A stretch of DNA of 64,000 nucleotides from Azolla caroliniana (Eukaryota > Plantae > Polypodiophyta): contig JBHGNT010000022.1 in NCBI GenBank assembly GCA_043228905.1, forward strand, positions 1,860,001 through 1,924,000. Reading direction: 5' to 3'. Numbering within the stretch: the first letter of the stretch is position 1; the number at the start of each line of letters is the position of its first letter. Shown here one piece after another: positions 2,717 through 51,140 of the stretch. Both the position numbers and the translations under genes were made by a program. Below the pieces are notes generated by a model. It was not told where the DNA came from. It did no database searches and was given only the letters and a program-made list of their open reading frames with translations.

Positions 2717-4739
2717 TGATCCTATCAAAGTACAACCAAATTGGCACATATGTACTCACGAAAACACATGGCTACGTAAGGTTAGTTGGGACCATTTGCA
2801 ATGGACATGGCATGATCCTTATGCTGGGCAAGGAAGCAAAACCATCCCTTTCTGTTGGGCGGCAAGCTCAACCGGATCCGGATCGGCTCAATAAGCCTGA
2901 GCCGGATCGGTGAGCTGGTGAGTTGGGGAGCTGGTTAGCTGGATCAAGCAGTAACCAGAAGCCAAGTAGCAGCTAGTCTACTAGGGAGTTAATATCTCAT
3001 AGTTAGTGTCAGATGCTCGTGTGAGCATTGAAGTACACCGTACTTCTTTCAGTCCGTATGGACTTGTATAAAAGTGTTCATTGAACACATACAATGTACA
3101 GACTGAGTAATATTTTGAATTGAGTTTTCTGTGCTCTCTCTCTCTCTCTCTCCTGCGTACTGTGTATACTTTATGCTCTCCATTAAACCTGTGTTTCTGT
3201 TTTCGGTTTTCCATTGCTTCCGCACACTATTCTTTCACATGGTATCAGAGCACGAGGGTTGAGAACCTCTACAACCGACATAGCTTGAAAGGAAAACTAA
3301 GCAAGAAGAATAAGTAAAAACCGATGGATAGAGGCATGGCTAGCTCGCTTCCGACGGAGAAGCTCGACAGAAGCAACTACGTGTTGTCGCATTGTTACGC
3401 GCGTGCGTGTGGAAGGGGTGGGAATACGGGGGTCTCGGAAGAGGGAGAAAGGGAGTTCAGGAAATCGACTCCGGACACGTACCAGAGGCTACCAAACATG
3501 AAAGAGAGAGAGAAAGATTGCGCGCAACACCGACTCTTATGTGCAGAAACCAAAAAGGGTGGAAACACCCGACACCATCAAAGACGCAGAAGTGCATAGC
3601 CAAACAGATATACATATTACAAGAGAAGATTACAACCCCAGCTCCAAGCTGGACCAAGGTAGGTTACAGCCACAGTCGGCTGCCAAGCCGCCGGTTGGGG
3701 AGCTCACGGCTGTTGCGCCAAGCGGGGTCTTGCACAAGAGACCTAGCAGAAGAAAACCTACAAAAGGGGAAAGATATGACCGCGGCCATGAGCCGGCTAC
3801 GCACAGAAGAAGAGAAGTTAACCTAACAGCTTTGCCGCCATAGCTCCCGCTCGACTTCTCGAGAAGGAGAAGAAGAAGAAAGAGAAAGAAAAGAATGTAG
3901 CTAACCCTAGAAAAGAAAGCACAAAAATGGTATACCCTTACAACTCAAAATGGGCAACCCCTTCACAAACGACGTTCCTTCCCGTTTTATAGAACAAGGA
4001 GAGGAAGCGTAACAATGTGGGATAAACCCCTTTTTATATGGGTAGGTGCACATGGTGCACTCCGCCGATTCTTCGGATATCCACTCAGTTTCTCACTATG
4101 GCCCGGAATCTTCACGACATCCACCCCCACCAAACCGCACGTCCACTGGTACGTGCCGAGTCTGGAGAAAGGCGAACGATTCGAGCTGGTGAGAAACCGG
4201 TCCTCCATGACCGGTATCCCTGCTTGCCGCGTCCGCCGCTGCCGGTTCGAACCATGGGCTCCGGTTCATCCTTTGCGCTTGCCTCTCCGTAGGCTCGTTC
4301 GACCCGTCGATAGGTCGTCGGCCGCGACCCCGTAGTACACATGCTTCCCCGTGGGCCCGTCTTTAGCCCGCATGCACGCTTCTCATTCCTTTGGTTACGC
4401 AGTGTCCTCCGTCCAAGGAACACCTGTGATGGCCCGCTTAGCCTCCGTGGATCTTCACGTCGTCTAGGTCTCTGTTCCTGGTCATATGTCGCCTTCGTCC
4501 CCTCGCCACCACCTTCCATTACCCTCAGTCTCACGTTGCCACGTCGGCCAAACAACCGGGATCTCTTGGCCGGTGTGAAGGATCCTTCTTGGGCATCCGT
4601 TTGTTGGGTCTTTGACTCTCGTACCAAACACGTCTGATCTTTTTCTTTCCGACTCTGCCGGTCGGGCCCGTATCCGGTTCGTGGCCGCCTCGTCGGCCTC
4701 ATACCTCCTTTCGCTCTGCTTCCCGTCGTCTGATCATGT

Positions 4740-5379
4740 TCACCTCCCGCCACCGATCTCCCCTATAGGACTCACACCGGCACTCGGGCCGACTTCCGGA
4801 TCGGTGTGAGGATCTTTGTGGGACCTCCCCTTCTTCCTTCGGTTGCCCGCCTTGCTGCTGCCTCCACCGTTCCTTACTCTAGGTCTCACGCCGGCTCTCG
4901 GGCCGACCACCGAAGTGTCTAGAACCGGTGTGTGTAAGGTCGCGGCCCGCTCTGCCTTCGTCGTCCGATCACGTTCACCTGCCGCCACTGATCTCTCCTA
5001 TAGGACTCACGCCGACACTCGGGCCAACCATCGGATCGGTGTGAGGATCATTGTGGGACCTCCCCTTCTACCTTCGGTTGCCCGCCTTGCCACCGCCACC
5101 GTTCCTTACTCTAGGTCTCACACTGGCTCTCTGGTCGACCGCCGGAGTGTCTAGAACCAGTGTGTGTAAGGTTGCGGCCCGCTCTGCCTTCGTCGTCCGA
5201 TCACGTTCACTTGCAGCCACTGATCTCTCCTATAGGACTCACGCCGGCACTCGGGCCGACCACTGGATCGGTGTGAGGATCTTTGTGGGACCTCGCCTTC
5301 GGCCTTCTGTTGCCTTCGTCCCCTCACCGCCACTGTTCGCCACTCTAGGTTTCACGCCGGCTCTCGGGCCGACCGCTGG
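4740..5379. repeat. ~235-bp tandem repeats in the 3' region of element D; continue after 9572
   Basis: GATCTC(T/C)CCTATAGGACTCAC recurs at ~4756, 4990 and 5222. Confidence 0.8.
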
Positions 5380-5566
5380 TGTCAGAACCAAGGATAAAAG
5401 ATAGAGTGATGGAAGAAGGATAGAGAAGAATGGATGTATAAGATAGAGAAAGAAAGAGAATGGATACAAGATATGTAATGAGAGCTAAAGACTGGTGTTG
5501 ATTCGAATTGATTTGAGAATACATGTATGCGCTTATTTATAGGTTCCTATAGAATAGCTTAGAGAT

Positions 5567-5630
5567 TTCTAGAATGTTCTAGAATGTTCTAGACCTAGAA
5601 TGCTCTAGTAAATTCTAGAACATTCTAGAA
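5567..5630. promoter_or_regulatory. Heat-shock element array (alternating nTTCn/nGAAn) in U3 of element E LTR; second copy at ~9346-9409
   Basis: TTCtaGAAtgTTCtaGAAtgTTC and TTCtaGAAcaTTCtaGAA, just upstream of a minus-strand TATAAATAA (5533-5541). Confidence 0.7.
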
Positions 5631-5693
5631 TAATCTAGAGTTTTTACAATAATCAATGTAATACAAGAAGTAGCTTTTATTGTTTCATATAAC

Positions 5694-5766
5694 AATAAGC
5701 TATCTTAATGGTTGAGGTTTTCAAGTATGAATTACAAGGTTCGAGGTTCAAGTCCGGGTGATGCCA
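5694..5766 (+). ncRNA. tRNA-like Pol III A/B-box module in LTR of element E (copy at ~9473-9545)
   Basis: A box-like TATCTTAATGG (5701), B box GGTTCAAGTCC (5745-5755); T8-to-T54 spacing 46 nt; cloverleaf degenerate. Confidence 0.6.
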
Positions 5767-5772
5767 TAATGG

Positions 5773-8700
5773 TCATGTGTTCATGACACTATCCCTCCTT
5801 CGAGAACGCCGAGTGGAAGTCAGCGTTAACATTGTTGGGCTGGGCTTGTTTGGATAGTGACGATGGAAGTCGTTGACCAAAGCTTCAGCATTACAAATGT
5901 TATCGATGGGTTCCCAAGTGCGATCACTCGGAGGATAACCAAGCCAATCAACTAGATAATAAAGCTTATTGCGCACAATCTTAGAATCGAGAATAGCAGC
6001 TACCTCGTATTCGGGGCCGTCCACAAGTTGTACAGAAGGCGGTGGTGGCACGACACGATCAGGAATTAAAGAGGTGTGGAAAGGTTCCAAAAGAGAGCTA
6101 TGAAAGACAGGGTGAAGCCGCATATGTGTAGGAAGGTTAAGACGAAATGTTGCATCATTAATCTGCGCCGTGATGACAAAAGGACCTAAGCGTTGATAGT
6201 CAAGCTTAGCACACGGTCGGGTAGTCTTGATGTGACGACGAAGCAACCATACACGATCACCAACCTTAAACGAAGACTTTAGACGATGTCGATCGGCATT
6301 GGTCTTATGGTGTGCTTGCGCTTTCTGAAGATGTGACGATAACTCGAACTGGATTTGTTGTAGTCGGTGGAGGTGATGTGCCGCACTAGGGTTTCGTGAC
6401 ACCTCGGGAAGATCCAGTATACACCATCGAGGGTGGTTGCCGGTGTAGGCAAAGAAAGGTGTAACTTTGGTAGAAGAGTGGACCGTGTTGTTGTATGCAA
6501 ACTCAGCAAGATGTAAAATTTTACTCCAATCATCTTGTTGATAACTAATGAAACATCGAAGATATTGCTCGAGTGTTTGATTTGTGCGCTCTGTTTGTCC
6601 GTCAGTTTGTGGATGATAAGCCGAAGAGAGTTTGCAAGAGATTTTGAGGCCTGCCCATAGGTGCTTCCAAAAGTGTGAGATAAATTGAGGACCTCGATCG
6701 CTAATAATATCATTCGGGAGACCATGATGGCGAAACACTTCACGCATAATGAGATCTGCAGTTTCTTCACTATTGATGGTCTTTACACATGGTACAAAAT
6801 GTGCCATCTTGGTGAACCGATCCACTACTGTTAAAATAGTATCAAAGCCTTTGGAAGGTGACAGATCCGTAATGAAATCCATAGAAATAGACTGCCATGG
6901 CTTGTTGGGAGGGGGTAATGGTTGTAGTAAGCCATAAGGGTGATGCCAGGGTATTTTGGCGCAACAGCAGGTGTCACAAGTGTGAACATAATCTTCGACA
7001 AATTTTTGCAAGTGAGGCCACCAAAACGAACGTTTCACCAACTCAATGGTCTTGGAAATACCAAAATGTCCAGCCATGGGGGCATCATGACAATGTTCCA
7101 ACACTTGAAGTCGGGGTGATCCATCGGGGACGTAAAGGAGATTCTTGTAGAAGAGTAAACCATCTTGCCACTTGAAGTCCTTATAATGTTGAGATGACCC
7201 TGGCAATGTGGAGCAAGATGGACGACTTGAACCACAGTGGGCTAAGACATCCTTAGCAAAATCATCCGAATGAAGTTGTTACCGAATAGTGTCAAGAAGG
7301 GTAGAATCAAGTGGTGTGGCATAAATTGTTGTTACCTGTAGCTTTGATGGCCCGAGGAGAGTTTGCTTTTGATTGTCAAAGGCCGGATCTCCAGGTCGAA
7401 GTGCTAGATACGAACGCCGAGACAGAGCTTCTGCTTTCCCTTGTTGTTTTCCGGGGCGAAAAATGATCTTGAAATCGAAACGCGTTAGAAATTGGGCCCA
7501 CCGAGCTTGTCGTCTATTTAATACTCGAGCTGTTTGAAAATATGTGAGATTTTTGTGATCACTATAAATGATAATCTGATGAGGTGAGCCTTCTAAAAAA
7601 TGACGCCATTGCTCGAATGAGTCGACCACAGCTAGTAACTCCTTGTCATGCACCTCATAGTTTATCTCCGAAACAGTAAACTTTCTCGAGTGAAACGCGA
7701 CTGGATGTATCTGCCCGTCCTTGCCTGGTTGCGATAGGATACTCCCCAATGCAAAGTCTGATGCATCCGCCTCAATAGTAAATGGCTTTTCAGGATCAAT
7801 ATGTGCTAGGATGGGTGCTGATGTGAATGCCTCTTTTAGCTGCGTAAAAGCCTTGTCCACTTCGATACTCCAAAAAAATGCTTGATTTTTCTTGGTGAGT
7901 TGAGTAAGGGGCAACACAATGCTTGAATAATTATGTATGAATTTGCGATAGAAGTTCGCAAATCCGAGGAAACACTGGACATCCCGAACTGAGCATGGGG
8001 GTTTCCATTCCAATATTGTTTGGACTTTTGCCGGGTCCATGAAAACACCCTGGGATGAAATAGTGTATCCCAAAAATTCGACTTGTTTGCAATCAAAACT
8101 GCATTTCTCAAGTTTGGCGTAAAGATCATACTTCCTTAGGCGTTCAAGTACTTGCCGCACATGTATATCATGCTCCCCCTGTGTTTTAGAGTAAATCAAT
8201 AGATCATCTAGGTAGATGATTAGAAAAATATCCAAGAAATCCCGAAAGATGTCATTTGCCATATGTTGGAATACGGCAGGTGCATTTGTGAGCCCGAAAG
8301 GCATGACTGTATACTCGAAATGACCATACTGAGTACGAAATGTTGTTTTCCACTCATCTCCTGGCCGAATTCGAACAAGATTATATGCACCCCTTAGATC
8401 AATTTTGGTAAAATGCTTTGCCCCACCAATGCGTTCTAAGAGATTGGAGATTAAAGGTAAAGCATACCTATTCCTTATGGTGACTTTATTTAAGCCTCGA
8501 TAGTCCACGACCAAACGAAGGGAGCCGTCCTTTTTCTTCACAAAAAAGATAGGAGCACCAGCTGGAGACTTTGAATGTCGAATAAACCCATGTGCAAGAT
8601 TTTCCTCGATGTATTCTCGAAGAACCTCAAGCTCAGTGGGTGATAAATTGTAAATCGGACCCCACGGAGGCTCTTTTCCTGGTTGGAGATCAATAGGACA

Positions 8701-9262
8701 GTCGTACGGCCGATGCTTTGGAAGAACACTAGCTTTGACTTTGTCGAAAACATCAGCATAGTCTTGATATTTTTTGGGAATTTGGATGTCTGAATTCCCT
8801 TGAGTGACACTAGAAGGTGTCACTGATACTGCAAATAAGAAAAGGTCCTCCTTGCCTCCCACTTGGTGCAATTGTTGCAATGTGATGGTTGAAATTTGAT
8901 GAGAAGGATATGGTGCATCGGTAGAACTATATACTTTGGGAGGATAATCCCGAGTTCGATCCTTGACAATGATATTTTCTGCTAAAGGGCACCTAATTTC
9001 TCGCTTCCTCCAATCAATTCTAGGGTTATGTAGCTCAAACCATGGCAAACCGAGGACAATTGGATGCTCAGGACTACGGATTATGTTAAAGGAAACTACA
9101 CATCCTAAATCACCCAAGAGTATGTGTATTGGCTCAGACTCTTCAAATATCTTCCCGGAAGCTATGGGGCGTCCATCAATCACTACTACGGAAACTGGAC
9201 AAGGAAGTGTATGCAAGGATATTTGGTGTTTTTGGGCAAAATCTCTATCCATGAAACAAGAA
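5773..9262 (-). pseudogene. pol: pol of element E (PR-RT-RNaseH-INT-chromodomain), one in-frame stop at 7279-7281, N-terminus lost
   Basis: YLDD RT motif; EADASD RNase H; ISMDFI and HPQTDGQTER integrase; GPF motif; chromodomain EYEVAAILDS..YLVDWLGY..TWEP. Confidence 0.93.
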
Positions 9263-11059
9263 TTGGTTCTGACAGTTTGATTCGAATTGATTTGAGAATA
9301 CATGTATGCGCTTATTTATAGGTTCCTATAGAATAGCTTAGAGATTTCTAGAATGTTCTAGAATGTTCTAGACCTAGAATGCTCTAGGACATTCTAGAAC
9401 ATTCTAGAATAATCTAGAGTTTTTACAATAATCAATGTAATACAAGAAGTAGCTTTTATTGTTTCATATAACAAGAAGTTATCTTAATGGTTGAGGTTTT
9501 CAAGTATGAATTACAAGGTTCGAGGTTCAAGTCCGGGTGATGCCATAATGGTCATGTGTTCATGACAGCTGGAGTCTCTAAAACCGGTGTGAAGGAACCT
9601 CCTCGGGCTCTGCGTACCTCGGACCCTTATCCTGCGTCATCTCTCTCTGCATGTCGAGCTGGTGGCTTGCTCCACACCCTCTCCCGTGGTACCGACGTAC
9701 TGTGTTCCCGGCCTCTTTGTAGGCCTGCTCTCTTCCTCCCTTCTGGATCGGTTGTCCAGAAGTCCGCTCCGCCCGATTCTCATCCGGGTTCGTCCCTCAT
9801 TCTCTGGATTGCCGGGTCTCGTTCTCTTGCCGCCACCGTCAATATCTTGGTCTTACGTCGGATCCGATGCTGACCGCCGAAGTCTCTAGATCCGGTGAGA
9901 GGTGACCCGTAGGACCGGTCTTCATTCTACTTGTTGCGTTCCCACCTCCATCTTCCATCTCTTTCGGTCTCACGTTGCCACGCCGGCCGAACTGCCGCAA
10001 TCTCTGGTCAAGATGTGGGGACACCGATTTCGTAACGACTCCCGCCGACTCATTCGGGCCACCGACCCTTTTAGTGGTGTTGGTGGATAGCATCCGCTCT
10101 ATCATCGATCAACCCCACCTGGGCTTGATTCTCCAATGTCCGGAGTTTCGGCTCCGATGCCGTTCCTACCGAACTCGTTCCGTACCCTCGATCATCTTCT
10201 TCCCGATTCCCGACCTTCGCCTGGTCGGTCGTTCCCCCAATGTAAAAGAGGGCGGCTCGTTCTGCACCCTCTCCCGTATCGGACAATCCAGGACCGGATC
10301 GAGCTCCAACCGAATCGGAGTGTCGCGTTGTTCGGTCCCCGGTCGTGTCAATTCTTGGTCTCTTCGTCGACCTTCTCGCGAACCATTTCCCATCCATCTT
10401 CACTGGCATCGTGGCAGGACTCCTCGACACCGTCATCCATCTCCTCGGTCTCACATGGGCGTAAGGGCCAGAATGTCGAGTTCTCCAGAATCGGTCCCGA
10501 GGGCTCTTATTCGTTCCTTCCCCGTATCGTCTCACCGGTGATTCTCGGTCTCTCGCTGCCGCCTTCCTCCTCTTGGGACTCACGTAGGCACTCGGGCCCG
10601 ACTACCATCATCTCGGGAGCAAGTGTGGGAAGACGCGTAGAATCGCCCGTCCTATTTACGCCCTTGTCCGTAGCCACCGGCTCCTCGTGGTCAGTGGTCG
10701 ACCCTTTTCCGATCGCACAAAACCCTGCCTAGGCTTCCTTCTTCAATGTTCAGAGTTTCGGGCTGACGTGCCCGAAACTGCTGGTCCCGACGCTCCGATT
10801 CTGCGATCGGTATCTCGGCCTTGTCCTCGGTCGTTCTTTCTCCGCAAGTCAAGAGGGCGTTATGTTCCGCACCCTCTCCCGTGGTACCGTCGTACCGATC
10901 TTCTGCCTCCTTGTGGGGCAAGTTCGTCTCCTCGGCCTCGGCTCGTAGCCTCGATCTTTCCTCTTCCTCGAGCATCGCTTCGAGAGTTGCGTACGCCTCC
11001 GCAATCCTGGCCCCGAAACCGAGCCTTGCCGACTCTCTCTGCCATTCGGCCTCTTCCCA

Positions 11060-12291: not shown

Positions 12292-15200
12292 TGTTGAGAA
12301 CTGTACGCTCCCTATGCTCAACGCTCGGCCACAACCGAGCTTAGAATCATACACAGAAAGTGGGAAGTAAATGCACGACACAAAGAAGAGAAAAGGTACA
12401 CAAGATGTTTACGTGGAAAACCCAAACTAAGGAAAAAACCACGGCAGCCCACAGGCTGCAAACTATCACTATCTTGGAATGTACAAATAGTGAGTTCACG
12501 GAGGCAACGACCTCGTGCTCATGATCTTCGCCACAGGCGGCGGTTACAACAGAGGCAACGACCTCTTTCTCTCTCTCTCTCTCTCTATACACTGTTACAC
12601 CCTCTAATTTCGAGCAAAACAAGAATGACAACAACAACAGTCATGTAAAAAATAATGCCCTAACTCATATTTATACTAATATGACTTTTCGGCTATTTAC
12701 AAATATAGCCACGATGGACTCTCAGAAACATATTTACGAATATGTCTCTTCATCCGGTTCTCACCAGGTCTGTACCATCCGGTTCTCTGTAGCCGGGTAC
12801 TCCTCATCCGGTCTTCACCGGGTCTGTATCATCCGGCTCTCCGTAGCCGGGTACTCCTCATCCGGTTTATACCGGGTCTGCACCATCCGGCTCTCCATAG
12901 CCGGGTACTCCTCATCTGGTTCATACCGGGTCTGTATCATCCAGCTCTCCGTAGCCGGGTACTCCTCATCCGGTTCATACCGGGTCTGCACCATCCGGCT
13001 CTCTGCAACCGGGTCCTCCTCATACGGTTTCGGCCTCGGCCTATCGGCACTGTTCTTCTCCCTTCCCATCCGGAGGGACCTGTCACCCAACAAACTCCCC
13101 CTTCACTCCGGCATGGGGTGTCTTACCAGTCCGATTCTCTTCCGGCATGCATCCAGCTTGTCGGGTATCAACACTTTGGTCAGCATATCTGACCCATTCT
13201 CGGCCGTGTGGATCTTCATCAGCGCGAACTCCTGGTCATCTACTCTTTCCTGGATCCAGTGATAACTCCGTTGGATATGCTTCGTCCGGGAATGATAGGC
13301 CGCATTCTTAGCAAGGTGGATGGCACTTTGACTGTCGCAATAGAGTCGGTATTCATCGTGCTAGATACCGAGCTCTCCGATGAAGTCCTTCATCCATAAG
13401 ATTTCCTTGCCGGCTTCCACAGCCGCCATGTACTCCGCCTCTGTGGTTGACAATGCAACCGTCTTCTGCAGCCTCGACTGCCACGAAACACCTCCCCCTG
13501 CATATGTCATTACATACCCGGATGTCGACCGGCTGGTATCCACATCAGCCGACATGTCCGAATCGGTGAAACCGTCAAGTTCAGGTTCTCCGGAGCCGAA
13601 TCGGAGACACATATTTGAAGTGCCTTTCAAATACCGGAGTATCCATTTGACCGCGTTCTAGTGCTCCTTGCCGGGATTGCTCATGAACCGGCTCACCACT
13701 CCGACTGCATATCCTATATCCGGTCGGGTACACACCATTGCGTACATCAAGCTCCCGACGGCAGAGGCATATGGAATCTTCATCATATCCGCCTTCTCTG
13801 CTTTCGTCTTCGGGCTTTGCTTACCGGATAGCTTGCAGTTTGCCGAAAGTGTCGATCCGACCGGTTTCGCATCTGACAGGTTGAACCGGTGAAGCACCTT
13901 TGTCACGTACTTCTCCTGTGACAGCGATAATTGCTTCGCTGACCGGTCCCGAATGATGTGCATCCCCAACATCTGTCTTGCCGGACCCAAGTCTTTCATT
14001 GACAAGGTCCGGTTGAGAGCCTTCTTCAGCATCCGTATTTTGACTTGGTCCCGTCCGACTATCAACATGTCGTCCACGTACAAAAGGAGTAAAGGAGTAT
14101 CAGGAAGTCGCCTCCTTCAAACTTCTTCATAAACACGAAGTGATCTTCCTGCGTCTTGTGGTACCCTTGATCGGTCATGAAGGAGTTGAACTTCCGGTAC
14201 CATTGCCGGGGGGCCTGCTTTAACCCGTAGAGGCTCTTCTTCAACCGGCAAACCAGGTGCTCCTTCCCTTTCTCCACGAATCCTTCCGGTTGCTACATGT
14301 AGATCTCTTCTTCGCGGTCACCGTGAAGGAATGTCGTCTTCACGTCTAGCTGCTCTACCTCGAGGTCCATGCTTGCCGCTATACTCAGCACCGTACATAT
14401 GGAGGTCATCTTTACTACCGGGGCAAATATCTTGTCGAAGTCCACGCCCTTCTTATGCTGGAACCCCTTGACCACTATCCTGGCTTTGTATCTCGGGGGG
14501 TTGCCGGCATCTCCCGGTTTCAACTTGTACACCCACTTGTTTATGAGTGCCCGCTTTCCTTTCGGCAACTCCACCAATTCATACGTATGGTTCTCATGCA
14601 GGGAATCCATCTCATCCTACATGGCACTTAACCATTTTCGGTTGTGGGTGTCTTCCTTCGCTTCTTCGAAGCTTTCCGGCTCCCCCTCATCGGTCAGCAG
14701 AACATGCTCTGCATCCGGAAATCTCCGGGGGGCCCTTCTCTCTCTGAGAGGATATCTCCGTCTCTGGGCTTCGGTGACCGGCTCATCCATCTGCTCTTCA
14801 TCCGAATCCGATTCGGGGTCTTGGCCAGTTCCGGTTTCAGCTTCCTCTACTTCTTCAGCCCGTTCGGTATCCTCACCGTAACCGTCTGGTCCCTTGAGTG
14901 CTAACCGGTCTCTTGCCGGTTGGGTCCGCTCATCGTAGAGTCGATCCTTACCGGTCGACTCGGAGTTCATTATCTTCTTCTCCGACTCCCAGTCGGCGAG
15001 CATCTTGTTCTCCATGAAGATAATATCTCGACTCCGGAATACCTTCTTGTCGACCAGGTCCCACACTCGGTAGCCGAACCCATCGTCACCATAACCGAGG
15101 AATATGCATGGTCGGGTCTTTGGATCTAACTTTCCTCTCCGGTCCTTAGCTACATGCACGTACGCGAGACACCCGAACACCTTCAGATGCCGATAGGATA

Positions 15201-17722
15201 CTTCCTTACCGGTCCACACTCTCTATGGCGTGTCTCCGTCCAAGGGTACTGAGGGTGATCTATTTATCACATATGTCGCCGTCGACAGTGCCTCAGCCCA
15301 AAACTTCTTGGGTAGTTTTGCATGCGCTAGCATACTCCGGACCCTCTCCATTATGGTCCGGTTCATCCTCTTGGCCAGTCCATTTAGTTCCGGTGTCTTC
15401 GGCACAGTAAATTCGAGCCGGATTCCCTTCAAGCGGCAGTACTCCTCGAACTGCCCCCGGTATTCTCCTCCGTTATCTGCTCGAACTGCCTTCACCTTCC
15501 GGTTGGTTTCTCTTTCCACTCTTGCGTGGAGCTCTTTGAAGACGGATAAGGCTTGATCCTTCGTCTTCAACAGTGTGGCCCACAGCTTCCGGTTGTGGTC
15601 ATCTATGAACGTCACGAAGTACTGCGCTCCGGCATGTGACTTCATGTCTACTTGACACACATCCGTATGCACCAACTCCAGTGGTGCATTATGTCTCATC
15701 GGTGGCCTTGGTCGGAAGGAGGTCCGGTTTTGCTTACCGGCCAGACAATCAGTGCACTTCTCCAAGTGCACGTTCTTCACTGGAATGAGGTTGTCGTCTG
15801 CAAGCCTCTTCATCCCCTTCTCGCTCATATGACACAGCCTCTTGTGCCACAGCTCACCGGCAGTGTCGGATGCCATGTTCACTCATCAGGTACAGTGTGT
15901 TGACCTTCCGAGCCCGAGCCACAATTAGGCTCCCTTTGTTGAACTTCATGACACCGTTTCGGATGCTACTCGTGTAGCCTTCATCGTCTAGCCGACCGGC
16001 TGATATCAGGTTCAGACGAACCTCCGGAACGTGTCGGACATCCTTCAACAAAAACTTGCATCCGGTTGGTGTTGACAGCCACACGTCTCCTATGCCGACA
16101 ATTCGGCATGTACCTTCATTCCCCATCCGAACACAACCGTGATCACCGGATGAGTAGGATGAGAAGCATTTCCGGTCCGGGGTAAGGTGGAACGACGCTC
16201 CGGAGTCTACCACCCAGGTCATCTCGTCGCCGGCAAGGTTTATCTCACTCTCCTCGGTGATGAGCATCAACTCCTCTTCACTTGCCGTGATTGCCGTCGT
16301 TCCCTTCCGGTCCGGTCCCCTACGGTCTTTACCGTTCCGGTCCGGTGTCCGCTTCGAATTGGTGCCGTCGGTTTCCTTGTCTTTACGGAAGTGCCGACAG
16401 TTCTTCTGGAAGTGTCCTGGCTTGCCGCAATAGAAGCAAGTAGGCCTCCCCCTTGACTTTGACCGTGTCCCCGACTTCTCCCAGTTCTGGGGACTACGGT
16501 TTCTATGTCTTCTGCGTTCCGATTCGGTAAGGAGCGCTTTGGAGTCGGAGCTCGTATCCTTATCTTTCCGACGCGCCTCCTCATCTAGCAGGCTCGACTT
16601 CACTCTTGCTAGGGATAACCGTTTTCCTTCCGGCCCGGCGTTGCCCAAAGTGACAACCAACGTCTCCCAGCTATCTGGGAGGGAACCGAGCAGGAGTAGC
16701 GCTAGTACCTCATCGGCGAGAGGTACTTCCAATGAAGTTTCCTGGTGGATCAGCCCCTAGAAGGCATTCATGTGCTCCGCCATGTTGGAGCCATCTTGGT
16801 ACCGGAGTCTTACTAGCTTCCGGAATACCGAAACTTGATTAACAACATTTCTGTTCTAAAACATTATGCCGATCTTCTCCCAGAGCTCATGAGCCTTGCT
16901 CTCTTCATTGAAGTTGTTGTACAGGCTCATGTCGATGAAGCACCGTATGTACGCCGTTGTCTTCATGTCCATCACCACCCATATCGCAGCGTCAATTTTG
17001 TCCGGTCTCTTGTCCCCGAACTGAACCGGCAGCCAGAGGTCTTTAACCACGAGCATGTCCCTCATCTTCGACTTCCATACTGAAGGATTGGAGCTGGTGA
17101 GCTTGAACATGCCGCCAAACGATTCGTCCATTTTTTGTGTCGTTTTGCTCTGATACCACTTGTCGAGAACTATGCGCTCCCTATACTCAACGCTCGGCCA
17201 CAACCGAGCTTAGAATCATACACAGAAAGCGGGAAGTAAATGCACGACACAAAGGAGAGAAAAGGTACACAAGATGTTTACGTGGAAAACCCAAACTAAG
17301 GGAAAAACCACGGCAGCCCACAGGCTGCAAACTATCACTGTTAAGTGCTCTAATCTCGTGCAAAACAGGAATGACAACAACAACAGTCATGTAAAAAATA
17401 ATGCCCTAAGTCATATTTATACTAATATGACTTTTTGGCTATTTACAAATATAGCCACGATGGACTCTCAGAAACATATTTACGAATATGTCTCTTCATC
17501 CGGTTCTCACCGGGTCTGTACCATCCGGTTCTCTGTAGCCGGGTACTCCTCATCGGGTCTTCACTGGGTCTGTATCATCCGGCTCTCCGTAGCCTGGTAC
17601 TCCTCATCCGGTTCATACCGGGTCTGCACCATCCGGCTTTCTGCAGTCGGATCCTCCTCATACAGTTTGTTCATCAGCACTGTTCTTCTCCCTTCCCATC
17701 CGGAGGGACCTGTCTCCCAACA
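12292..17722 (-). mobile_element. Ty1/copia element G1 (Tnt1/Tork-like), full length, degenerate
   Basis: LTRs 12292-13092 and 17161-17722; TSD TGTTT; iMet PBS 17147-17158; PPT next to 13093; gag, CCHC knuckle, WVVDSGASFH protease, INT, RT and RNase H fragments with stops and frameshifts. Confidence 0.95.
12743..13025. repeat. 57-bp tandem repeat in U3 of G-family LTRs; copy number varies between LTRs
   Basis: CCGGGTACTCCTCATCCGG..CCGGGTCTG(T/C)ACCATCCGGCTCTCCGTAG repeated about 5 times here; fewer copies at ~17500-17660, ~18240-18310 and ~27000-27190. Confidence 0.85.
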
Positions 17723-19815
17723 TGTTTTTCTTCTTCTGCGTTTGCTTCTAGTTATTTCTCCTTCCATCGGCCGTCTCTTCTGTCAGCTAGTCGTCCGTCC
17801 ATGTCTCCATCGTCGTTGCCATCTCTATCTCCATTGTCGGCGCCATTTCCATTTTTCGTTGTCGTCGTCCTTGTCTACCCTATCCGGCCAATCTGCACTT
17901 GGTCGTTTACTCCAGCGGGCTTTCCGGCGCCATCCGGCTATTACGGTCGCTTCTGTCGATGTTTGACTGTCGTTCCTATCACTCTCCAACTGCACCACTG
18001 TCTGATTGTCATCCCGGCTTTGTGGCCGTTGTGGCCGCTGATTCTCCAGCCGTCGTCAGGAGTCTTCGCCGTATCTATGTATCTATCGGCCCTGTCTGGT
18101 CATCACCATTTCCATTTTTCATTGTCGTCGTCTTCATCACTGTTGTTTGTCATCACCATCTCAATATTTGGTTATCTTAGTCTCTGTTTCTGTTGGGAGA
18201 CAGGTCCCTCCGGATGGGATAGGAGAAGAACAGACCCGATGAAGACCGGATGAGGAGTACCCGGCTACGGAGAGCCGGATGGTGCAGACCCGGTGAGGAA
18301 TGCTCACCGGATGAAGAGACATATTCGTAAATATGTTTTTGAGAGTCACATTCGCAAACTTTTAGCATAGTGTAGTTGTTGTTGTCATTCTTGTTGGTGC
18401 AAGAAAAGAGAGAGAGCGCGTAACTGTGTACAGAGAGAGAGAGAGAGAGAGAGAGAAAGAGGTCGTTGCCTTTGTTGTAACCGCCGCCTGTGGCGAAGAT
18501 CGTGAGCACGAGGTCGTTGCCTCCGTGAACTCACTGTTGTACATACTAACAGAGTGATAGTTTGCAGCCTGTGGGCTGCCTTGGTTTTTCCCCTAGTTTG
18601 GGGTTTTCCACATTAAACATCCTGTGTACACCTCTCTTCTTTGTGTTGTGTTTTATTTCCCGTTTTCTGTGTATGATTCTAAGCTCGGTTGTGGCCGAGT
18701 GTTGCGCATAAGGAGCGTTTAGTTCCCGTCAAGTGGTATCAGAGCGAGACGACACAGAAAATGGACGAATCATTTGGCGGCATGTTCAAGCTCACCAGCT
18801 CCAACTATTCAGTGTGGAAGTCGAAGATGAGGGACATGCTCGTGGTTAAAGATCTTTGGTTACCGGTTCAGTTCAGGGACAAGAGACCGGACAAGATCGA
18901 CGCCATAATATGGGAGGTTATGCACATGAAGACAACGGCGTACATACGGTGCTTCATCGACATGAGCCTATACAACAACTTCAATGAAGAGAGCAAGGCT
19001 CATGAGCTCTGGGAGAAGATCGGCATAATGTTAGCGGACCATAATGGAGAGGGTCCGGAGTATGCTAGCGCATGCAAAACTACCCAAGAAGTTTTGGGCT
19101 GAGGCATTGTCGACGGCGACATATGTGATAAATAGATCACCCTCAGTACCCTTGGACGGAGACACACCACAGAGAGTGTGGACCGGCATCTGATGGTGTT
19201 CAGGTTTCTCGCGTGCTTGCATGTAGCTAAGGACCAGAGAGGAAAGTTAGATCCAAAGACCCGACCATGCATATTCCTCGGTTACGCTGACGATGAGTTC
19301 GGCTACCGAGTGTTGGACCTGGTCGACAAGAAGGTATTCCGGAGTCGAGATATTATCTTCATGGAGGACAAGACGCTCGCCGACTGGGAGTCGGAGAAGA
19401 AGATAATGAACTCCGAGTCGACCGGTAAGGATCGACTCTACGATGAGCAGACCGAACCGGCAAGAGATCGGTTAGCACTCGAGGGACCAGCCGGTTACGG
19501 TGAGGATACCGAACGGGCTGAAGAAGAAGTAGAGGAAGCTGAAACCGGAACCTGTCAGGAATAGTACTAAAGCAGAGATGGAATTAGTACTAAGAAGAGT
19601 AGTACTATTAGTACTAAGAAGACAGGACTGCGTAAGATTCCCGAGAGAGAGGAAGTGAGAAGAGGAGAGAGAGAGAAATAGAATGATGACAGCAGCTCTT
19701 ATATTATATGAAAGATAAGTACAAATCGGCTAAGAGGCTTAAGACTGGTGTTGAACCAATTTGGTTCAACATAATGCTTAGTGCCTTCTTTTATAGTGTT
19801 CTCAGGAATAATCCT

Positions 19816-19833
19816 GAAGCTTCTAGAATGTTC
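19816..19833. promoter_or_regulatory. Heat-shock element in LTR of element F (copy at 25052-25069)
   Basis: GAAgcTTCtaGAAtgTTC about 20 nt upstream of a minus-strand TATAAAA. Confidence 0.65.
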
Positions 19834-19902
19834 CAGAGAAATCTGGAATATACATTACTTTCTTATAATAAAACATAAATGAAAATAATATTCTATGAAT
19901 TA

Positions 19903-19975
19903 CAATAGATGGTGAGATGGTTAAGAGCTCGACCCATATACCATAAGGTCATGGGTTCGAGTCTTGCCATCTCAT
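19903..19975 (+). ncRNA. tRNA-like Pol III A/B-box module at the U3 end of element F LTR (copy at 25139-25211)
   Basis: TGGTGAGATGGTTAAG (19910) and GGTTCGAGTC (19954-19963); T8-to-T54 spacing 46 nt; also folds as a long hairpin 19913-19974. Confidence 0.65.
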
Positions 19976-19990
19976 GACACTATCTCCCCC

Positions 19991-22900
19991 TTAAAGACGA
20001 CGAGTGGAACGAGTCAGCGCTACTTGCGGACCGGGTTTGTCCGGATACTTTTGGTGGAAATCAGCAAGAAGATCTTGTGCATTGGCAACATTCTCGACGG
20101 GTTCCCAAGTACGTTCGCTCGGACTATAACCGAGCCAATCGACCAAGTAATAGAGTTTGTTGCGAACAAGTTTGGAATCGAGGATGGCAGCAACTTCATA
20201 CTCCGGGCCGGCGTCCAACTCCAGTGGGGGCGGCGGTGGTGTCACACGATCGGGAATGGTGTTTGCTTTATAAGGTTCAAGAAGAGAACAATGGAAAACC
20301 GGATGTATCTGAAGCTGCGGAGGGAGATCAAGGCGGAAGGTGACATCATTAATCTTCCCCGTAATACGGAAAGGACCGAGTCGTCGATAATCCAACTTGT
20401 CGCACGGTCGAGTAGTCTTGATGTGACGACGTAAGAGCCATACTCGATCTCCGATGGCAAAAGAGGAGGGAATCCGATGACGATCCGCATAAGTCTTCTG
20501 TGTGTGTTGAGCATGACGAAGGTGAGTAGAGAGATCCATCTGGATCTTGCGTAGCCTCTCCAAATGATCCTCGGCACGAGGGTTGGTAGGTAGCTCCGGA
20601 GCGTCGATCACCGACCAGCGAGGATGGAAACCGGTATAAGCGAAAAATGGGGAGACCCGAGTCGAGGAGTGAATAGCATTATTATACGCAAACTCCGCAA
20701 AGTGGAGAATCTCGGCCCAATCGTCCTGTTGATAACTCAGGAAACACCGGAGATATTGCTCCAGCGTTTGGTTTGTTCGTTCCGCCTGTCCGTCGGTCTG
20801 AGGATGGTAGCCGGAGGAGAGGTTGCAGGAGACCTTGAGCATCTTGAAGAGATGCTGCCAAAATTTGGAGACAAATTGCGGGCCTCGGTCACTGATAATA
20901 CTGTCTGGGAGGCCATGATGCCGAAAAACCTCACGCATAACAAGAGCGGCGGTTTCCTCGCTAGTGATGGCTTTAGTACATGGCACAAAATGTGCCATCT
21001 TCGTATATCGATCGACGACGGTTAGGATAGCATCGAACCCTTTCGAGACCGGCAAATCTGTGATAAAATCAAGACAAATAGACTGCCATGGCTTACTTGG
21101 AATTGGTAAAGGTTCCAACAAGCCATATGGATGGTGTCGTGGCATCTTTGCTCGGCAGCAAGCATCACAAGTCCGAACGTAGTCGTCGACAAAACGGCGC
21201 ATGTGGGGCCACCAAAAAGATCGCTGCACTAGCTCCAACGTCTTAGTACTACCGAAATGTCCCGCCGTATGGGTGTCGTGACAATGTTGGACAATTTGAA
21301 GGCGACAGGAGCAATCGGGGACATATACGCGCTTTTTAAAGAATAACAAACCATCATGATATTCGAATTGTCGGTAGTCAATACCTGGTTGTTGAGACTG
21401 AGAACAGGATGCCCGAGAAGTATCAATGTGCGCCAGGATGTCTTGAGCAAAACTATCCGTCTTCAAGGTTGCACGTATGTCATCGGTAATCCGTGAATCC
21501 ATCGGGGTGTGAAAAATCCGCGTCGTGTGCAATCGTGTTGGTCCCAAGATTACTTGCTTTTGATTATCAAATGTTGCTTCACCAGGACGAGGTGCAAGAT
21601 ATGAACGTCGTGATAGTGCATCTGCTTTTCCTTGCTGCTTCCCCGGTCGATATGTGATTTTGAAGTCGAAACGCGTGAGGAATTGCGCCCACCGAGCTTG
21701 CCGTCGATTTAGTACGCGAGCATTCTGAAAATAAGCAAGATTTTTATGATCGCTGAAGACAATGACCTGATGTGGAGAGCCCTCTAAGAAATGCCGCCAT
21801 TGTACAAATGAATCCACGATGGCTAATAACTCCTTGTCATGTATTTCGTAGTTGATTTCTGCGACATCGAATTTGCGCGAATGGAAAGCCACCGGATGCA
21901 ACTCTTCTTTATCACCTTGTTGAGAAAGGATGCTACCGAGGGCGAAATCTGATGCGTCGGCCTCCATGATGAATGGTTTGCTTGTATCCACATGAGCTAG
22001 AATCGGTGCTGATGTAAAGGCTTTCTTAAGATGCCGAAAAGCCATATCTGCTTCAATGGACCAAAGAAATGCTTGGCCCTTCTTCGTAAGTTGTGTGAGA
22101 GGTAAAATAATCTTCGAGTAATCCTGTATAAACTTACGGTAGAAGTTAGCAAAACCTAGAAAACATTGTACATCTCGTACCGACCGTGGAATTTGCCACT
22201 CTAGTACAGTTTGGATCTTAGCTGGATCCATGGCGATGCCCTTTGAGGAGATGACGTAGCCTAGAAATTCCACTTGCTTGCAGTCGAAGCTACATTTTTC
22301 TAGCTTGGCATAAAGACCATTCTCGCGGAGTCGCTTTAGTACTAATAGTACATGAGAGTCGTGCTCTTCCTGGGTCTTCGAATAAATCAACAGATCATCC
22401 AGATAAATGATCAAACAGATATCCAAGAGGTCTCTGAATATATCATTTGCCATGTGTTGGAAGACTGCGGGTGCATTGGTTAGGCCAAACGGCATAACAG
22501 TATACTCAAAATGCCCATACCGCGTGCGAAAAGCGGTCTTCCACTCATCTCCCGGTCGGATCCGCACGAGATTATACGCTCCGCGTAGGTCGATTTTAGT
22601 AAAAAACTTGGCACCATTAACTCGCTCTAAAAGACTTGATATAAGAGGAAGTGCATACCTATTCCGGATGGTGACTTTATTTAATCCGCGGTAATCAACG
22701 ACAAGACGAAGTGAGCCATCTTTCTTCTTGACAAAGAAGATGGGTGCACCGGCCGGAGATTTCGAATGACGGATGAACCCGCTTGCCAAGTTCTCCTCTA
22801 TGTAGGCTCGAAGGACTTCTAACTCGGTGGGTGACAGGTTGTAAATTGGTCCCCATGGTGGCTCGGTTCCTGGTTGTAAATCGATGGGACAGTCATAGGG

Positions 22901-23572
22901 ACGGTGATGAGGAAGGGTACCGGCTTTTACCTTGTCAAATACATCGGCATAAGGATGATATTTTGCCGGAAGTTGTACTGAGGAGTCCTTCTTAATAGTG
23001 CTGGAAGGATGTACTGATATGGAAAATAGGAACATTGCCTCCTTGGGTCCTTCTTCGCGTAGTTGATGGAGTGAAATGGTCGAAACTCGGCGAGTTGATT
23101 CTTGGGGTGGTCGATATCGGACTTCTCTTGTTCTCCAATCTATGGTTGGATTATGTAACTCAAGCCAAGGTAATCCTAGGACAATGGGATGCTCTGGACT
23201 ACTAATTATATTAAATGATATTATACACACAAAACTACCTAGGACAACTTGAATGGGTTCTGATTCTTCTACAATATTCCCGGAAGCAATGGGACGACCA
23301 TCAATGACCACTACAGATGCGGGACAAGGAAGTTTTCTTAAGGATATCTGAGAAGCTTGGGCAAAATTTCGATCCATGAAACAAGAATTAGCTCCGGAAT
23401 CTAAAAGTGCTAGAACGGGTACTGGGGGAGTACTTTTAGTACTAACAATGACTTGGGCTAGGAACACATTGCTAACTTGCTTGGAAGGAATGGAACCACT
23501 AATGGGCTGTACAGATCTAGGGCTGCTGTCCAACCAAATGGCTCCTATTTTGGCTGGACTCAATCGTTTAAC
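19991..23572 (-). CDS. pol: Pol of element F (PR-RT-RH-INT-chromodomain), in the -1 frame relative to gag
   Basis: ALLDSGA protease; YLDD RT; EADASD RNase H; HHCC and DDE integrase; GPF motif; C-terminal chromodomain; 1190 codons without a stop. Confidence 0.96.
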   Translation of the reverse strand, partial: VKRLSPAKIGAIWLDSSPRSVQPISGSIPSKQVSNVFLAQVIVSTKSTPPVPVLALLDSGANSCFMDRNFAQASQISLRKLPCPASVVVIDGRPIASGNIVEESEPIQVVLGSFVCIISFNIISSPEHPIVLGLPWLELHNPTIDWRTREVRYRPPQESTRRVSTISLHQLREEGPKEAMFLFSISVHPSSTIKKDSSVQLPAKYHPYADVFDKVKAGTLPHHRPYDCPIDLQPGTEPPWGPIYNLSPTELEVLRAYIEENLASGFIRHSKSPAGAPIFFVKKKDGSLRLVVDYRGLNKVTIRNRYALPLISSLLERVNGAKFFTKIDLRGAYNLVRIRPGDEWKTAFRTRYGHFEYTVMPFGLTNAPAVFQHMANDIFRDLLDICLIIYLDDLLIYSKTQEEHDSHVLLVLKRLRENGLYAKLEKCSFDCKQVEFLGYVISSKGIAMDPAKIQTVLEWQIPRSVRDVQCFLGFANFYRKFIQDYSKIILPLTQLTKKGQAFLWSIEADMAFRHLKKAFTSAPILAHVDTSKPFIMEADASDFALGSILSQQGDKEELHPVAFHSRKFDVAEINYEIHDKELLAIVDSFVQWRHFLEGSPHQVIVFSDHKNLAYFQNARVLNRRQARWAQFLTRFDFKITYRPGKQQGKADALSRRSYLAPRPGEATFDNQKQVILGPTRLHTTRIFHTPMDSRITDDIRATLKTDSFAQDILAHIDTSRASCSQSQQPGIDYRQFEYHDGLLFFKKRVYVPDCSCRLQIVQHCHDTHTAGHFGSTKTLELVQRSFWWPHMRRFVDDYVRTCDACCRAKMPRHHPYGLLEPLPIPSKPWQSICLDFITDLPVSKGFDAILTVVDRYTKMAHFVPCTKAITSEETAALVMREVFRHHGLPDSIISDRGPQFVSKFWQHLFKMLKVSCNLSSGYHPQTDGQAERTNQTLEQYLRCFLSYQQDDWAEILHFAEFAYNNAIHSSTRVSPFFAYTGFHPRWSVIDAPELPTNPRAEDHLERLRKIQMDLSTHLRHAQHTQKTYADRHRIPSSFAIGDRVWLLRRHIKTTRPCDKLDYRRLGPFRITGKINDVTFRLDLPPQLQIHPVFHCSLLEPYKANTIPDRVTPPPPPLELDAGPEYEVAAILDSKLVRNKLYYLVDWLGYSPSERTWEPVENVANAQDLLADFHQKYPDKPGPQVALTRSTRRL
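23518..23572 (-). promoter_or_regulatory. -1 programmed ribosomal frameshift signal
   Basis: G TTA AAC heptamer (23572-23566) lies in the short gag/pol overlap; 6-nt spacer; 11-bp hairpin GTCCAGCCAAA/TTTGGTTGGAC (23559-23528). Confidence 0.8.
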
Positions 23573-24717: not shown

Positions 24718-24774
24718 AGTATAGGGAAAAGGGTAGGAGGATGAGGGAGAGTGACAAGTAGGCTAGAGAGAAGA

Positions 24775-24786
24775 AAATTGGTTCAA
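24775..24786 (-). promoter_or_regulatory. Self-priming PBS of element F
   Basis: TTGAACCAATTT, 2 nt after the 5' LTR, is the exact complement of AAATTGGTTCAA (24998-24987) at the predicted transcript start; no TGG tRNA-type PBS. Confidence 0.8.
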
Positions 24787-27700
24787 ACTGTCAGGAATAG
24801 TACTAAAGCAGAGATGGAATTAGTACTAAGAAGAGTAGTACTATTAGTACTAAGAAGACAGGACTGCGTAAGATTCCCGAGAGAGAGGAAGTGAGAAGAG
24901 GAGAGAGAGAGAAATAGAATGATGACAGCAGCTCTTATATTATATGAAAGATAAGTACAAATCGGCTAAGAGGCTTAAGACTGGTGTTGAACCAATTTGG
25001 TTCAACATAATGCTTAGTGCCTTCTTTTATAGTGTTCTCAGGAATAATCCTGAAGCTTCTAGAATGTTCCAGAGAAATCTGGAATATACATTACTTTCTT
25101 ATAATAAAACATAAATGAAAATAATATTCTATGAATTACAATAGATGGTGAGATGGTTAAGAGCTCGACCCATATACCATAAGGTCATGGGTTCGAGTCT
25201 TGCCATCTCATGACAGAACCGGCCAAGAACCCGAATCGGATTCGGATGAAGATCAAATGGAGGAGCCGGTTACCGAAGCCCGAAGACGGAGATATCCTCT
25301 CAGAGAGAGAAGGGCGCCCCAAAGATTTCCGGATGCAGAGCATGTTCTGCTGACCGATGAGGAGGAGCCGGAAAGCTTCGAAGAAGCGAAGGATGACACC
25401 CACAGCCGCAAATGGTTAAGTTCCATGCAGGATGAGATGGATTCCCTGCATGAGAACCATACGTACGAATTGGTGGAGTTGCCGAAAGGAAAGCGGGCAC
25501 TCCGAAACAAGTGGGTGTACAAGTTGAAACCGGGAGATGCCGGCAACCCCCCGACATACAAAGCCACGATCATGGTGAAGGGGTTCCAGCAGAAAAAGGG
25601 CGTGGACTTTGACGAGATATTTGCCCCGGTAGTAAAGATGACCTCCATCCGGACGGTGCTAAGTATAGCGGCAAGCATGGACCTCGAGGTAGAGCAGCTA
25701 GACGTGAAGACGGCATTCCTTCACGGTGACCTCGAAGAAGAGATCTACATGCAGCAACCGGAAGGATTCGTGGAGAAAGGGAAGGAGCACCTGGTTTGCC
25801 GGTTGAAGAAGAGCCTCTACGGGTTGAAGCAGGCCCCCCGGCAATGGTACAGGAAGTTCGACTCCTTCATGACCGATCAAGGGTACCACAAGACGCAGGA
25901 CGATCACTGCGTGTTTCTGAAGAAGTTTGAAGGAGGCGACTTCCTGATACTCCTTTACTCCTTTTGTACGTGGACGACATGTTGATCGTCGGACGGGACC
26001 AAGTCAAAATACGGATGCTGAAGAAGCCCCTCAACCGGACCTTCGCAATGAAAGACTTGGGTCCGGCATGACAGATGTTGGGGATGCATATTATCCGGAA
26101 CCGGTCAGCGAAGAAATTATGGTTGTCACAGGAGAAGTACGTGACAAAGGTGCTTCACCAGTTCAACATGTCAGATGTGAAACCGGTCGGATCGACACTT
26201 CCAGCAAACTGCAGGCTATCCGGTAAGCAAAGCCCGAAAACGAAAGCAGAGAAAGCGGATATGATGAAGATTCCATTTGCCTCTGTTGTCGGGAGCTTAA
26301 TGTACGCAATGGTTTGTACCCGACCGGATATAGGATACGCAGTCGGAGTGGTGAGCCGGTTCATGAGCAATCCCGGCAAGGAACACTGGAACGCGGTCAA
26401 ATGGATACTCCGGTATTTGAAGGGCACTTCAAATATGTGTCTCCGATTCGGCTCCGGAAAACCTCAACTGGACGGTTTCACCGATTCGGACATGTCGGCT
26501 GATGTGTATACCAACCGATCTACATCCGGGTATGTAATGACATATGCAGGGGGAGTTGTTTCGTGGCAATCAAGGCTGGAGAAGACGGTTGCATTGTCAA
26601 CCACGGAGGCGGAGTACATGGCGGTTGTGGAAGCCGACAAGGAAATATTATGGATGAAGGACTTAATCGGAGAGCTCGGTATCCAGCAAGATGAATACCG
26701 ACTCTATTGCGACAGTCAAAGTGCCATCCACCTTGCTAAGAATGCGGCCTATCATTCCCGGATGAAGCATATCCAGCGAAGATATCACTGGATCCGGGAA
26801 AGAGTAGATGACCAGGAGTTCGCACTGACGAAGATCCACACGGCCGAGAACGGGTCAGACATGCTGACCAAAGTGTTGATACCCGACAAGCTGGATGCAT
26901 GCCGGAAGAGGATCGGACTAGTAAGACACCCCATGCCGGTGTGAAGGAGGAGTTTGTTGGGAGACAAGTCCCTCCGGATGGGATAGGAGAAGAACAGACC
27001 CGGTGAAGACCGGATGAGGAGTACCCGGCTACGGAGAGCCGGATGGTGGAGACCCGGTGAGAACCAGATGAGGAGTACCCGGCTACGGAGAGCCGGATGG
27101 TGCAGACCCGGTGAGAACCAGATTAGGAGTACCCGATTACGGAGAGCCAGATGGTGTAGACCCGATGAGAAATGCTCACTGGATGAAGAGACATATTCGT
27201 AAATATGTTTCTGAGAGTCCATCAAGGCTATATTTGTAAATAGCCGAAAAGTCATATTAGTATAAATATGACTTAGGGCAAACTTTTAGCATAGTGTAGT
27301 TGTTGTTGTCATTCTTGTTGGTGCAAGGAAAGAGAGAGAGCGCGTAACTGTGTACAAAGAGAGAGAGAGAGAGAGAGAAAGAGGTTGTTGCCTCTGTTGT
27401 AACCGCCGCCTGTGGTGAAGATCGTGAGCACGAGGTCGTTGCCTCCGTGAACTCACTGTTGTACATACTAACATAGTGATAGTTTGCAGCCTGTGGGCTG
27501 CCGTAGTTTTTCCCCTAGTTTGGGGTTTTCCACGTTAAACATCCTGTGTACACCTCTCTTCTTTATGTTGTGTTTTATTTCCCGTTTTCTGTGTATGATT
27601 CTAAGCTCGATTGTGGCCGAGCGTTGCGCATAAGGAGCGTTTAGTTCCCGTCAGTTTCCGTCTCTGGCTCCATTGCCGTTGTTGTCTCCATCTATTGGCG

Positions 27701-51042: not shown

Positions 51043-51140
51043 CTCCTCTGTTCTTCTTCCGACAACACTCGGTGAACAAACAAACTCCTCTCTCTTTATC
51101 CATCACTATTCTCATGAGCAAAAAGGACAGGGGAAAAATT

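Follow-up and report, generated by a model that had tools for sequence, protein, structure and literature searches.

Promoters for RNA polymerase III (Pol III) have been described inside long terminal repeats (LTRs) in Helenus, or TRIMp3, elements, where the tRNA-derived LTR sequence has its conservation centred on boxes A and B and is neither a working tRNA nor a primer of reverse transcription; Cassandra and Ajax are other cases of Pol III promoters in LTRs (PMC10886601). Helenus elements are non-autonomous terminal-repeat retrotransposons in miniature (TRIMs) of 311-1263 bp with tRNA primer-binding sites (PBSs), thought to be transcribed by Pol III, and their autonomous partners have been argued to need RNA polymerase II (Pol II) and to be unlikely to have long LTR stretches in common with TRIMp3 (PMC10886601). 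Here we describe a similar unit in two LTR retrotransposons, elements E and F, within a 64,000-nt stretch of the Azolla caroliniana genome (assembly GCA_043228905.1, contig JBHGNT010000022.1, positions 1,860,001 to 1,924,000; hereafter, the window). Unlike Helenus, these belong to gag-pol chromoviruses of ~5.6 kb with predicted self-priming, which keep a putative Pol II TATA promoter. They carry the boxes antisense. Membership in TRIMp3 was considered and rejected on coding capacity and on the predicted self-priming, the PBS being complementary to the LTR itself and not to a tRNA.

Two further systems are close enough to be compared. In the miRNA cassettes of simian foamy virus LTRs and the miRNA cluster of bovine leukemia virus (BLV), A and B boxes likewise lie within the LTR of an autonomous retroelement with a genome made by Pol II, and these have defined stem-loops, terminators and demonstrated products (PMC3993851). 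In contrast, the unit described here has no conserved stem or terminator, is itself a recognisable tRNA homologue, and is antisense. The other system consists of tRNA genes (tDNAs) and extra-TFIIIC (ETC) sites, barriers at which TFIIIC sites act by occupancy and not through an RNA product (PMC12409998, PMC4228148), with B2 short interspersed nuclear element (SINE) boundaries as a further case (PMC8136502). These are host loci or SINEs, and ETC sites retain only an extended B box, whereas here the A box is kept and the unit travels within an LTR. Full-text literature searches, with the subscription literature and Repbase outside their scope, returned no title or abstract opening that describes a unit of this kind in LTRs of Tcn1 or of other autonomous plant elements, and the words "polymerase III" occur nowhere in PMC2864245 (Tcn1 chromoviruses) or PMC7466625 (moss RLG1). 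Autonomous examples may be listed in the supplements of PMC10886601.

The antisense unit in elements E and F

The unit occupies the first ~90 nt of the U3 region of E, antisense to the element, and consists of the following features (positions within boxes follow tRNA numbering):

5701..5711, plus strand: A box TATCTTAATGG in E's 3' LTR, running antisense to the element, with T8, A14, G18 and G19 kept and T at position 10
5718..5721, plus strand: run of four T residues (T4) within E's unit, a possible early Pol III stop
5737..5740, plus strand: AGGT, at tRNA positions 44-47, an upstream extension of E's B box
5745..5755, plus strand: B box GGTTCAAGTCC in the 3' LTR of E
9480..9490 and 9524..9534, plus strand: the same A-box/B-box pair recurring in the 5' LTR remnant of E
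19910..19964, plus strand: homologous unit in the 3' LTR of F, with a long rod fold (z -6.8)
25146..25200, plus strand: homologous unit in the 5' LTR of F

The coordinates bear out the original prediction that E and F carry A and B boxes at the same LTR end, in the same antisense orientation and at equal spacing, the T8-to-G53 distance being 45 nt in both (46 inclusive), and that both LTRs of E have the unit (5701-5755 and 9480-9534). The B box matches the GTTCRANNC pattern of a type 2 Pol III promoter and is preceded at tRNA-like spacing by an A box in which T8, R9, A14, the Y, G18 and G19 are kept and G10 is lost in E. The pattern proposed for surveying A boxes, TRGYNNARNGG, thus describes E's own box with one mismatch, the T at position 10. 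What did not stand is the claim that the U3 regions of E and F are not obviously alignable. Outside the unit they align weakly, with a local score of 92 against 40 +/- 7.5 for shuffled sequences (maximum 72 of 100), which indicates that the LTRs are homologous.

Several simpler identities were tried and set aside. A tRNA gene is ruled out, as ARAGORN found no tRNA in the window, Rfam gave no tRNA match at E<=10 in either LTR, and the cloverleaf stems pair at chance level (see below). Coding constraint is excluded by the position of the unit outside the pol frames, of which that of E ends at 5773 and that of F at 19991. A recent SINE insertion finds no support, given that 339 of 365 E-type heads in the genome run into the LTR end, the remaining 26 not having been inspected, and that the unit occurs in both deep subclades of the element tree; with those 339 heads ending at the LTR terminus, nothing points to a free SINE family sharing the head. 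In agreement with the original prediction, no SINE tail is seen around E's unit. Hitchhiking on an integrase att site was likewise rejected, the B box lying 15-74 nt from the edge and the intervening segment being only 0.35 identical.

Conservation across the clade

To survey the genome (523 Mb in 1503 contigs), we used a polypurine tract (PPT)/LTR junction pattern that is blind to the boxes and that found 3304 sites, against 7 for a backward control. An exact antisense GTTCRANNC lies within 35 nt of the LTR edge at 2419 of these 3304 junctions, and at one in the backward control. Genomic copies are not independent, and 173 junctions (from this genome and 76 metagenome loci) were therefore reduced to 48 clusters at 85% internal identity, although these single-linkage clusters are still partly dependent, several singletons being fragments of F-like or L142-like families. 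Two clusters with less than 150 nt of LTR and one chance junction (L160) were dropped to leave 45, with representatives picked on internal sequence; five loci with no usable junction (L108, L232, L248, L268 and L277) were also dropped. When scored over 13 box positions with a G18-G53 distance of 33-40 permitted, 20 representatives have no mismatch and ten have one, in comparison to 0.2 per set of dinucleotide shuffles, 0/45 on the opposite strand and 2/44 in an upstream LTR segment with at most one mismatch. The unit is therefore not missing from most family members, which is the outcome that would have told against the original prediction, but is present with at most one mismatch in 30 of 45 cluster representatives.

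Among these 30 good units, the G18-G53 spacing is 34-36 in 28, equal to that of the class I tRNAs of the genome, and the distance from B box to LTR edge ranges from 20 to 74 nt. Among loci ordered by position, at most one mismatch was found in 53 of 70 junction loci, and the unit is kept in all 30 E-family LTRs, one of which has an 8-nt deletion inside it. In a tree of integrase C-termini (35 rows, with 15 representatives too short for inclusion and no named Tcn1 references), the unit is found in both deep subclades. A search with the SH3 family brought up a different lineage, which served as a negative control: in L051-L080, a distant lineage of the same genome (~30% identity), a B box near the LTR start was found in 0/30 within 500 nt, with two strict matches at 541 and 575 nt. 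A search of viral contigs found no relatives. Two variant forms were also observed, namely a second spacing class with 42 nt between G18 and G53 (L085, L157, L172, L177 and L178) and L083-type LTRs in which the B box lies inside a perfect 8-bp hairpin ending at the LTR terminus.

The elements have a C-terminal chromodomain (PF00385), whose aromatic cage we take to be formed at the Y, W and Y positions, and show predicted self-priming in place of a tRNA PBS. These features fit Tcn1-like chromoviruses, to which we provisionally assign the clade. Tcn1 has been described as having a chromodomain with aromatic-cage residues, no tRNA PBS and predicted self-priming (PMC2864245, PMC6317226), and as confined among plants to mosses and club-mosses (PMC6317226).

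For an estimate of what is conserved within the unit, the 30 good units were de-duplicated to 15 (removing L170 and near-duplicates). Mean pairwise identity is 0.86 at the scanned box positions and 0.88 at AGGT (tRNA positions 44-47), which was not part of the scan, in contrast to 0.30 in the spacer formed by the anticodon arm, and to 0.35 on the downstream and 0.34 on the upstream side. Within AGGT, the per-base frequencies are A100, G80, G93 and T100%, and the exact motif is found in 29 of 42 units. Pairing of stems in the tRNA register, on the other hand, is at chance for the acceptor (45/105 vs 42.0), T (35/60 vs 35.7), anticodon (27/75 vs 29.2) and D stems (31/60 vs 29.9), whereas real tRNAs by the same measure give 7/7 for the acceptor and 4/4 for the T stem. 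The earlier expectation that the unit has been kept through sequence turnover is thus confirmed over dozens of families, with promoter positions at 0.86-0.88 identity against 0.30-0.35 in spacer and flanks, and this conservation supports its corollary that selection, and not a chance SINE, is the likely cause. A full 7/7 acceptor stem was found only in L259; in units of the L259 type the acceptor stem is perfect over 7 bp in the tRNA register, and in L101-type copies it reaches 12 bp.

In yeast, tauB touches a base upstream of the B box, the G45A change cuts TFIIIC binding 5-fold, changes at +44 to +47 alter transcription, and the A box serves to place tauA for TFIIIB and not to anchor TFIIIC (PMC11724288). 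With AGGT and the boxes conserved and the stems at chance, selection appears to act on a DNA promoter and not on a tRNA fold, and the conserved set matches what TFIIIC would read on DNA, as opposed to the needs of a folded tRNA. Since the A box, which places TFIIIB, is retained as well, the unit may be a full pre-initiation site. That it is a TFIIIC site under selection is, in our assessment, highly probable.

Residual likeness of the units to the genome's tRNA-Asn and tRNA-Ile shows an apparent tRNA ancestry, direct or via a SINE. The F unit has 11 nt in common with tRNA-Asn, and the E unit aligns with it. No single donor is favoured among the 12 isotypes recovered, in a comparison that drew on 30 of 62 listed tRNA loci; Ile, Asn, Lys and His lead in different units. 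Some of the tRNAs in the genome listing are presumably plastid-type, which, with the CG and CHG decay of element copies, is a sign of a plant genome. The genome also has tRNA-Lys(TTT), tRNA-Ile(TAT) and tRNA-Arg(TCT) genes in tandem arrays, spaced by a few hundred bases (L111-L130; C5, C2 and C11), with drifting copies among them, including Lys-to-Asn anticodon changes.

An alternative is that the clade's ancestor long ago captured a tRNA or SINE, of which the unit is a neutral relic, simply inherited since. The leftover likeness to tRNA-Asn and tRNA-Ile, the losses in several lineages and the CG decay described below would all be in keeping with a relic. However, a relic does not account for identities of 0.86-0.88 at promoter positions against 0.30 in the interleaved spacer among families only ~50% alike in the integrase C-terminus, and while the box positions were chosen by the scan, AGGT was not. 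Nor does it account for an A-B spacing that is fixed next to a segment whose length is free. We consider that this position-specific conservation already largely refutes the relic, which we hold to be quite improbable.

Anatomy of the LTRs and of element E

The placement of the unit relative to the rest of the LTR matters for its possible function. Element E is a Ty3/gypsy chromovirus on the minus strand, bracketed by the target-site duplication GCTGG (5375-5379 and 9568-9572), with the following parts:

5380..5788, minus strand: 3' LTR (TG...CA)
5498..5509, minus strand: predicted self-primer at the element RNA's 5' end, complementary to the PBS in intact members of the family
5533..5541, minus strand: TATA-like box of a predicted Pol II promoter, judged from its position ~25 nt upstream of the self-primer
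5567..5630, unstranded: perfect GAAnnTTC/TTCnnGAA triples, forming an array that lies between the TATA-like box and the unit
5773..9315, minus strand: pol remnant with reverse transcriptase, RNase H, integrase, SH3 and chromodomain (5857-6009)
5789..5803, minus strand: PPT
9265..9288, unstranded: rearranged junction, in which the self-primer is fused to an inverted U5 end, followed by a deletion into the protease region
9277..9567, minus strand: 5' LTR remnant, U3 only, with the boxes on the plus strand

The pol of E is broken by one in-frame stop between 7279-9315 and 5773-7278, and gag is missing. The 5' LTR remnant, truncated and rearranged, has 4 differences from the 3' LTR in 291 nt. Element F (19553-25215) codes for gag and a 1194-aa pol frame, its pol region being 70% identical to that of E. 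In intact family members, the sequence following the 5' LTR is complementary to a 12-nt LTR stretch ~25 nt downstream of the TATA-like box, from which we predict Tf1-type self-priming; such priming would put the Pol II start near 5509 and make 5510-5788 the U3. An inversion of R-U5 between self-primer and PBS was seen in 6 of 30 E-family LTR loci (L287, L290, L294, L296, L303 and L310), and split matches point to a similar inversion in F. This recurrent rearrangement supports the self-priming inverted repeat.

We take the GAAnnTTC/TTCnnGAA triples to be the heat-shock element (HSE) pattern. All 14 triple matches of this type in the window fall in the LTRs of E and F (5567-5630, 9346-9409, 19816-19833 and 25052-25069), and a perfect triple is present in 20 of 39 cluster representatives, which suggests that Tcn1-like elements may be heat-inducible. 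Read from the host side, a 5' LTR presents the B box first, then the A box, an AT-rich stretch, the HSE array, TATA and the start, an arrangement with the appearance of two promoters back to back.

As for the surroundings, copia and gypsy elements are nested together in the window. The copia-type LTRs hosting E and F bear 54-nt and ~115/235-nt tandem arrays (12590-13084, 17336-17722 and 4724-5379). Elsewhere, a ~1.5 kb repeat is present in two copies within 48952-54570, each with an open frame of 364-365 codons without a Pfam match, and the two copies flank 93-nt tandem repeats at 51140-51422.

Possible functions of the unit

Taken together, the unit is best described as a probable type 2 Pol III promoter of tRNA origin that a self-priming Tcn1-like clade has kept, in antisense orientation, at the outer edge of its U3. 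We regard it as real, selected and clade-wide; its function we infer. The antisense orientation means that it cannot drive the element RNA. One reading, which we favour without placing it above even chances, is that the TFIIIC/TFIIIB complex forms a portable boundary next to the Pol II promoter of the element itself. In this reading, tauB would grip the B box and positions 44-47, while tauA would use the A box to seat TFIIIB at roughly 5640-5690, facing away from the TATA box ~150 nt off. In the 5' LTR, the complex would then separate the HSE/TATA promoter from host chromatin or read-through transcription. Precedent comes from yeast, where tRNA genes and ETC sites depend on TFIIIC to act as barriers to heterochromatin, and where they stop Pol II read-through (PMC12409998, PMC4228148). 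Chromoviruses are thought to be directed to heterochromatin by their chromodomain (PMC7466625), and, more speculatively, a boundary could offset such guided insertion.

If the unit were instead selected for its RNA, Pol III would make either an antisense transcript over U3, PPT and, in the 3' LTR, the chromodomain region, or a hairpin precursor of small RNAs, with which the element would tune its own silencing or copy number, in the manner of the foamy-virus miRNA cassettes. The A box and its spacing are kept, as transcription requires, and 7 of 17 units fold at z <= -2.8, with F forming a near-perfect rod (z -6.8, 19910-19979) that is 78% paired in 21 F-side sequences in comparison to 32-44% in slid controls. 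However, E's unit has no fold (z 0.1) and contains a T4, upstream LTR controls fold about equally well (mean z -1.4 vs -2.0), the covariation is no stronger than in shuffles (26/500 at best, others 82-446/500), and RNAalifold gives no consensus structure. T4 occurs inside the unit in 1 of 15 as opposed to 6 of 15 upstream, as an RNA would favour, and A4 falls likewise (2 vs 7). Nor is a terminator conserved. When sought at a fixed distance in 15 units, the first T4 lay 54-554 nt from T8 in 11, with no T4 within 700 nt of internal sequence in the other 4; after the B box of E's 3' LTR, the first T4 is at 6519, so the oligo-T terminator expected shortly after a Pol III unit is lacking. The want of a fixed-distance terminator speaks against a conserved RNA product, and, together with the T4 inside E's unit and the want of a common fold, against any one conserved small RNA. 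We judge selection for an RNA to be unlikely, though not negligibly so.

Another possibility is that TFIIIC/TFIIIB serves as a co-activator or nucleosome positioner for the HSE/TATA promoter, or tethers the element to Pol III sites in the nucleus, without blocking the spread of heterochromatin. The same data on position, AGGT and spacing would fit, as would the fixed place beside HSE arrays in 20 of 39 representatives and the CG decay in old copies, and nucleosome phasing is among the extra-transcriptional effects reported for such complexes (PMC4228148). This proposal is hard to separate from a boundary on sequence alone, and we give it a low probability. Lower still, to the point of being scarcely credible, is that of a landing pad or decoy, with the boxes drawing in retrotransposons that target Pol III, or copies from the clade itself, for insertion upstream. 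An outward-facing unit lies within 150 nt in 0/81 distinct E/F host flanks, 63 of 72 junction LTRs are unbroken upstream of the unit, the other breaks being at scattered distances with no common inserted element, and 0/30 E LTRs are broken just upstream of the A box.

Several observations count against the boundary reading itself. CG and CHG decay is seen in element copies, and in E's unit CG decay stands at 10/91 versus 100/1882 internally, with ~1% at CHH, in a count that compares 23 E copies to one reference with shared variants counted repeatedly and in which the F copies are too young (0/36). In most genomic copies, then, the unit looks methylated and not protected, and a boundary effect, if real, would be confined to new or master copies. 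Fifteen of the 45 representatives have two or more mismatches, five of these having TGGT at spacing 42. The unit is lost in L260, a close relative of intact L257, worn in L109/L251/L252 and in L275, and absent from the outlying soil locus L280; these losses, which include the high-coverage contigs L251 and L260, indicate that some lineages can dispense with the unit. The range of hosts is probably narrow, since a single accession series supplied 73 of the 76 metagenome loci, and these have families in common with this genome. Finally, the evidence for barriers is drawn from yeast and mammals and would extend to plants by analogy, and Pol III complexes are also able to repress a Pol II promoter in their neighbourhood (PMC4228148).

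On the boundary reading, the clade may have domesticated a tRNA promoter as a built-in insulator that shields a heat-inducible promoter, thereby scattering thousands of TFIIIC sites over a plant genome, a scenario we put forward tentatively. Independent of that scenario, the unit takes LTR-borne Pol III promoters beyond non-autonomous TRIMs and into full-length plant elements, whose transcription it cannot serve in its orientation. Exact B boxes number at least 2419 in this genome even when 3' LTR junctions are counted by themselves; 5' and solo LTRs add more, and together they represent a large unannotated pool of candidate TFIIIC sites. The unit bears on how chromoviruses, which presumably aim at heterochromatin, stay transcribable there, and its conserved and mutable target of 17 positions makes the answer of a TFIIIC boundary directly testable.
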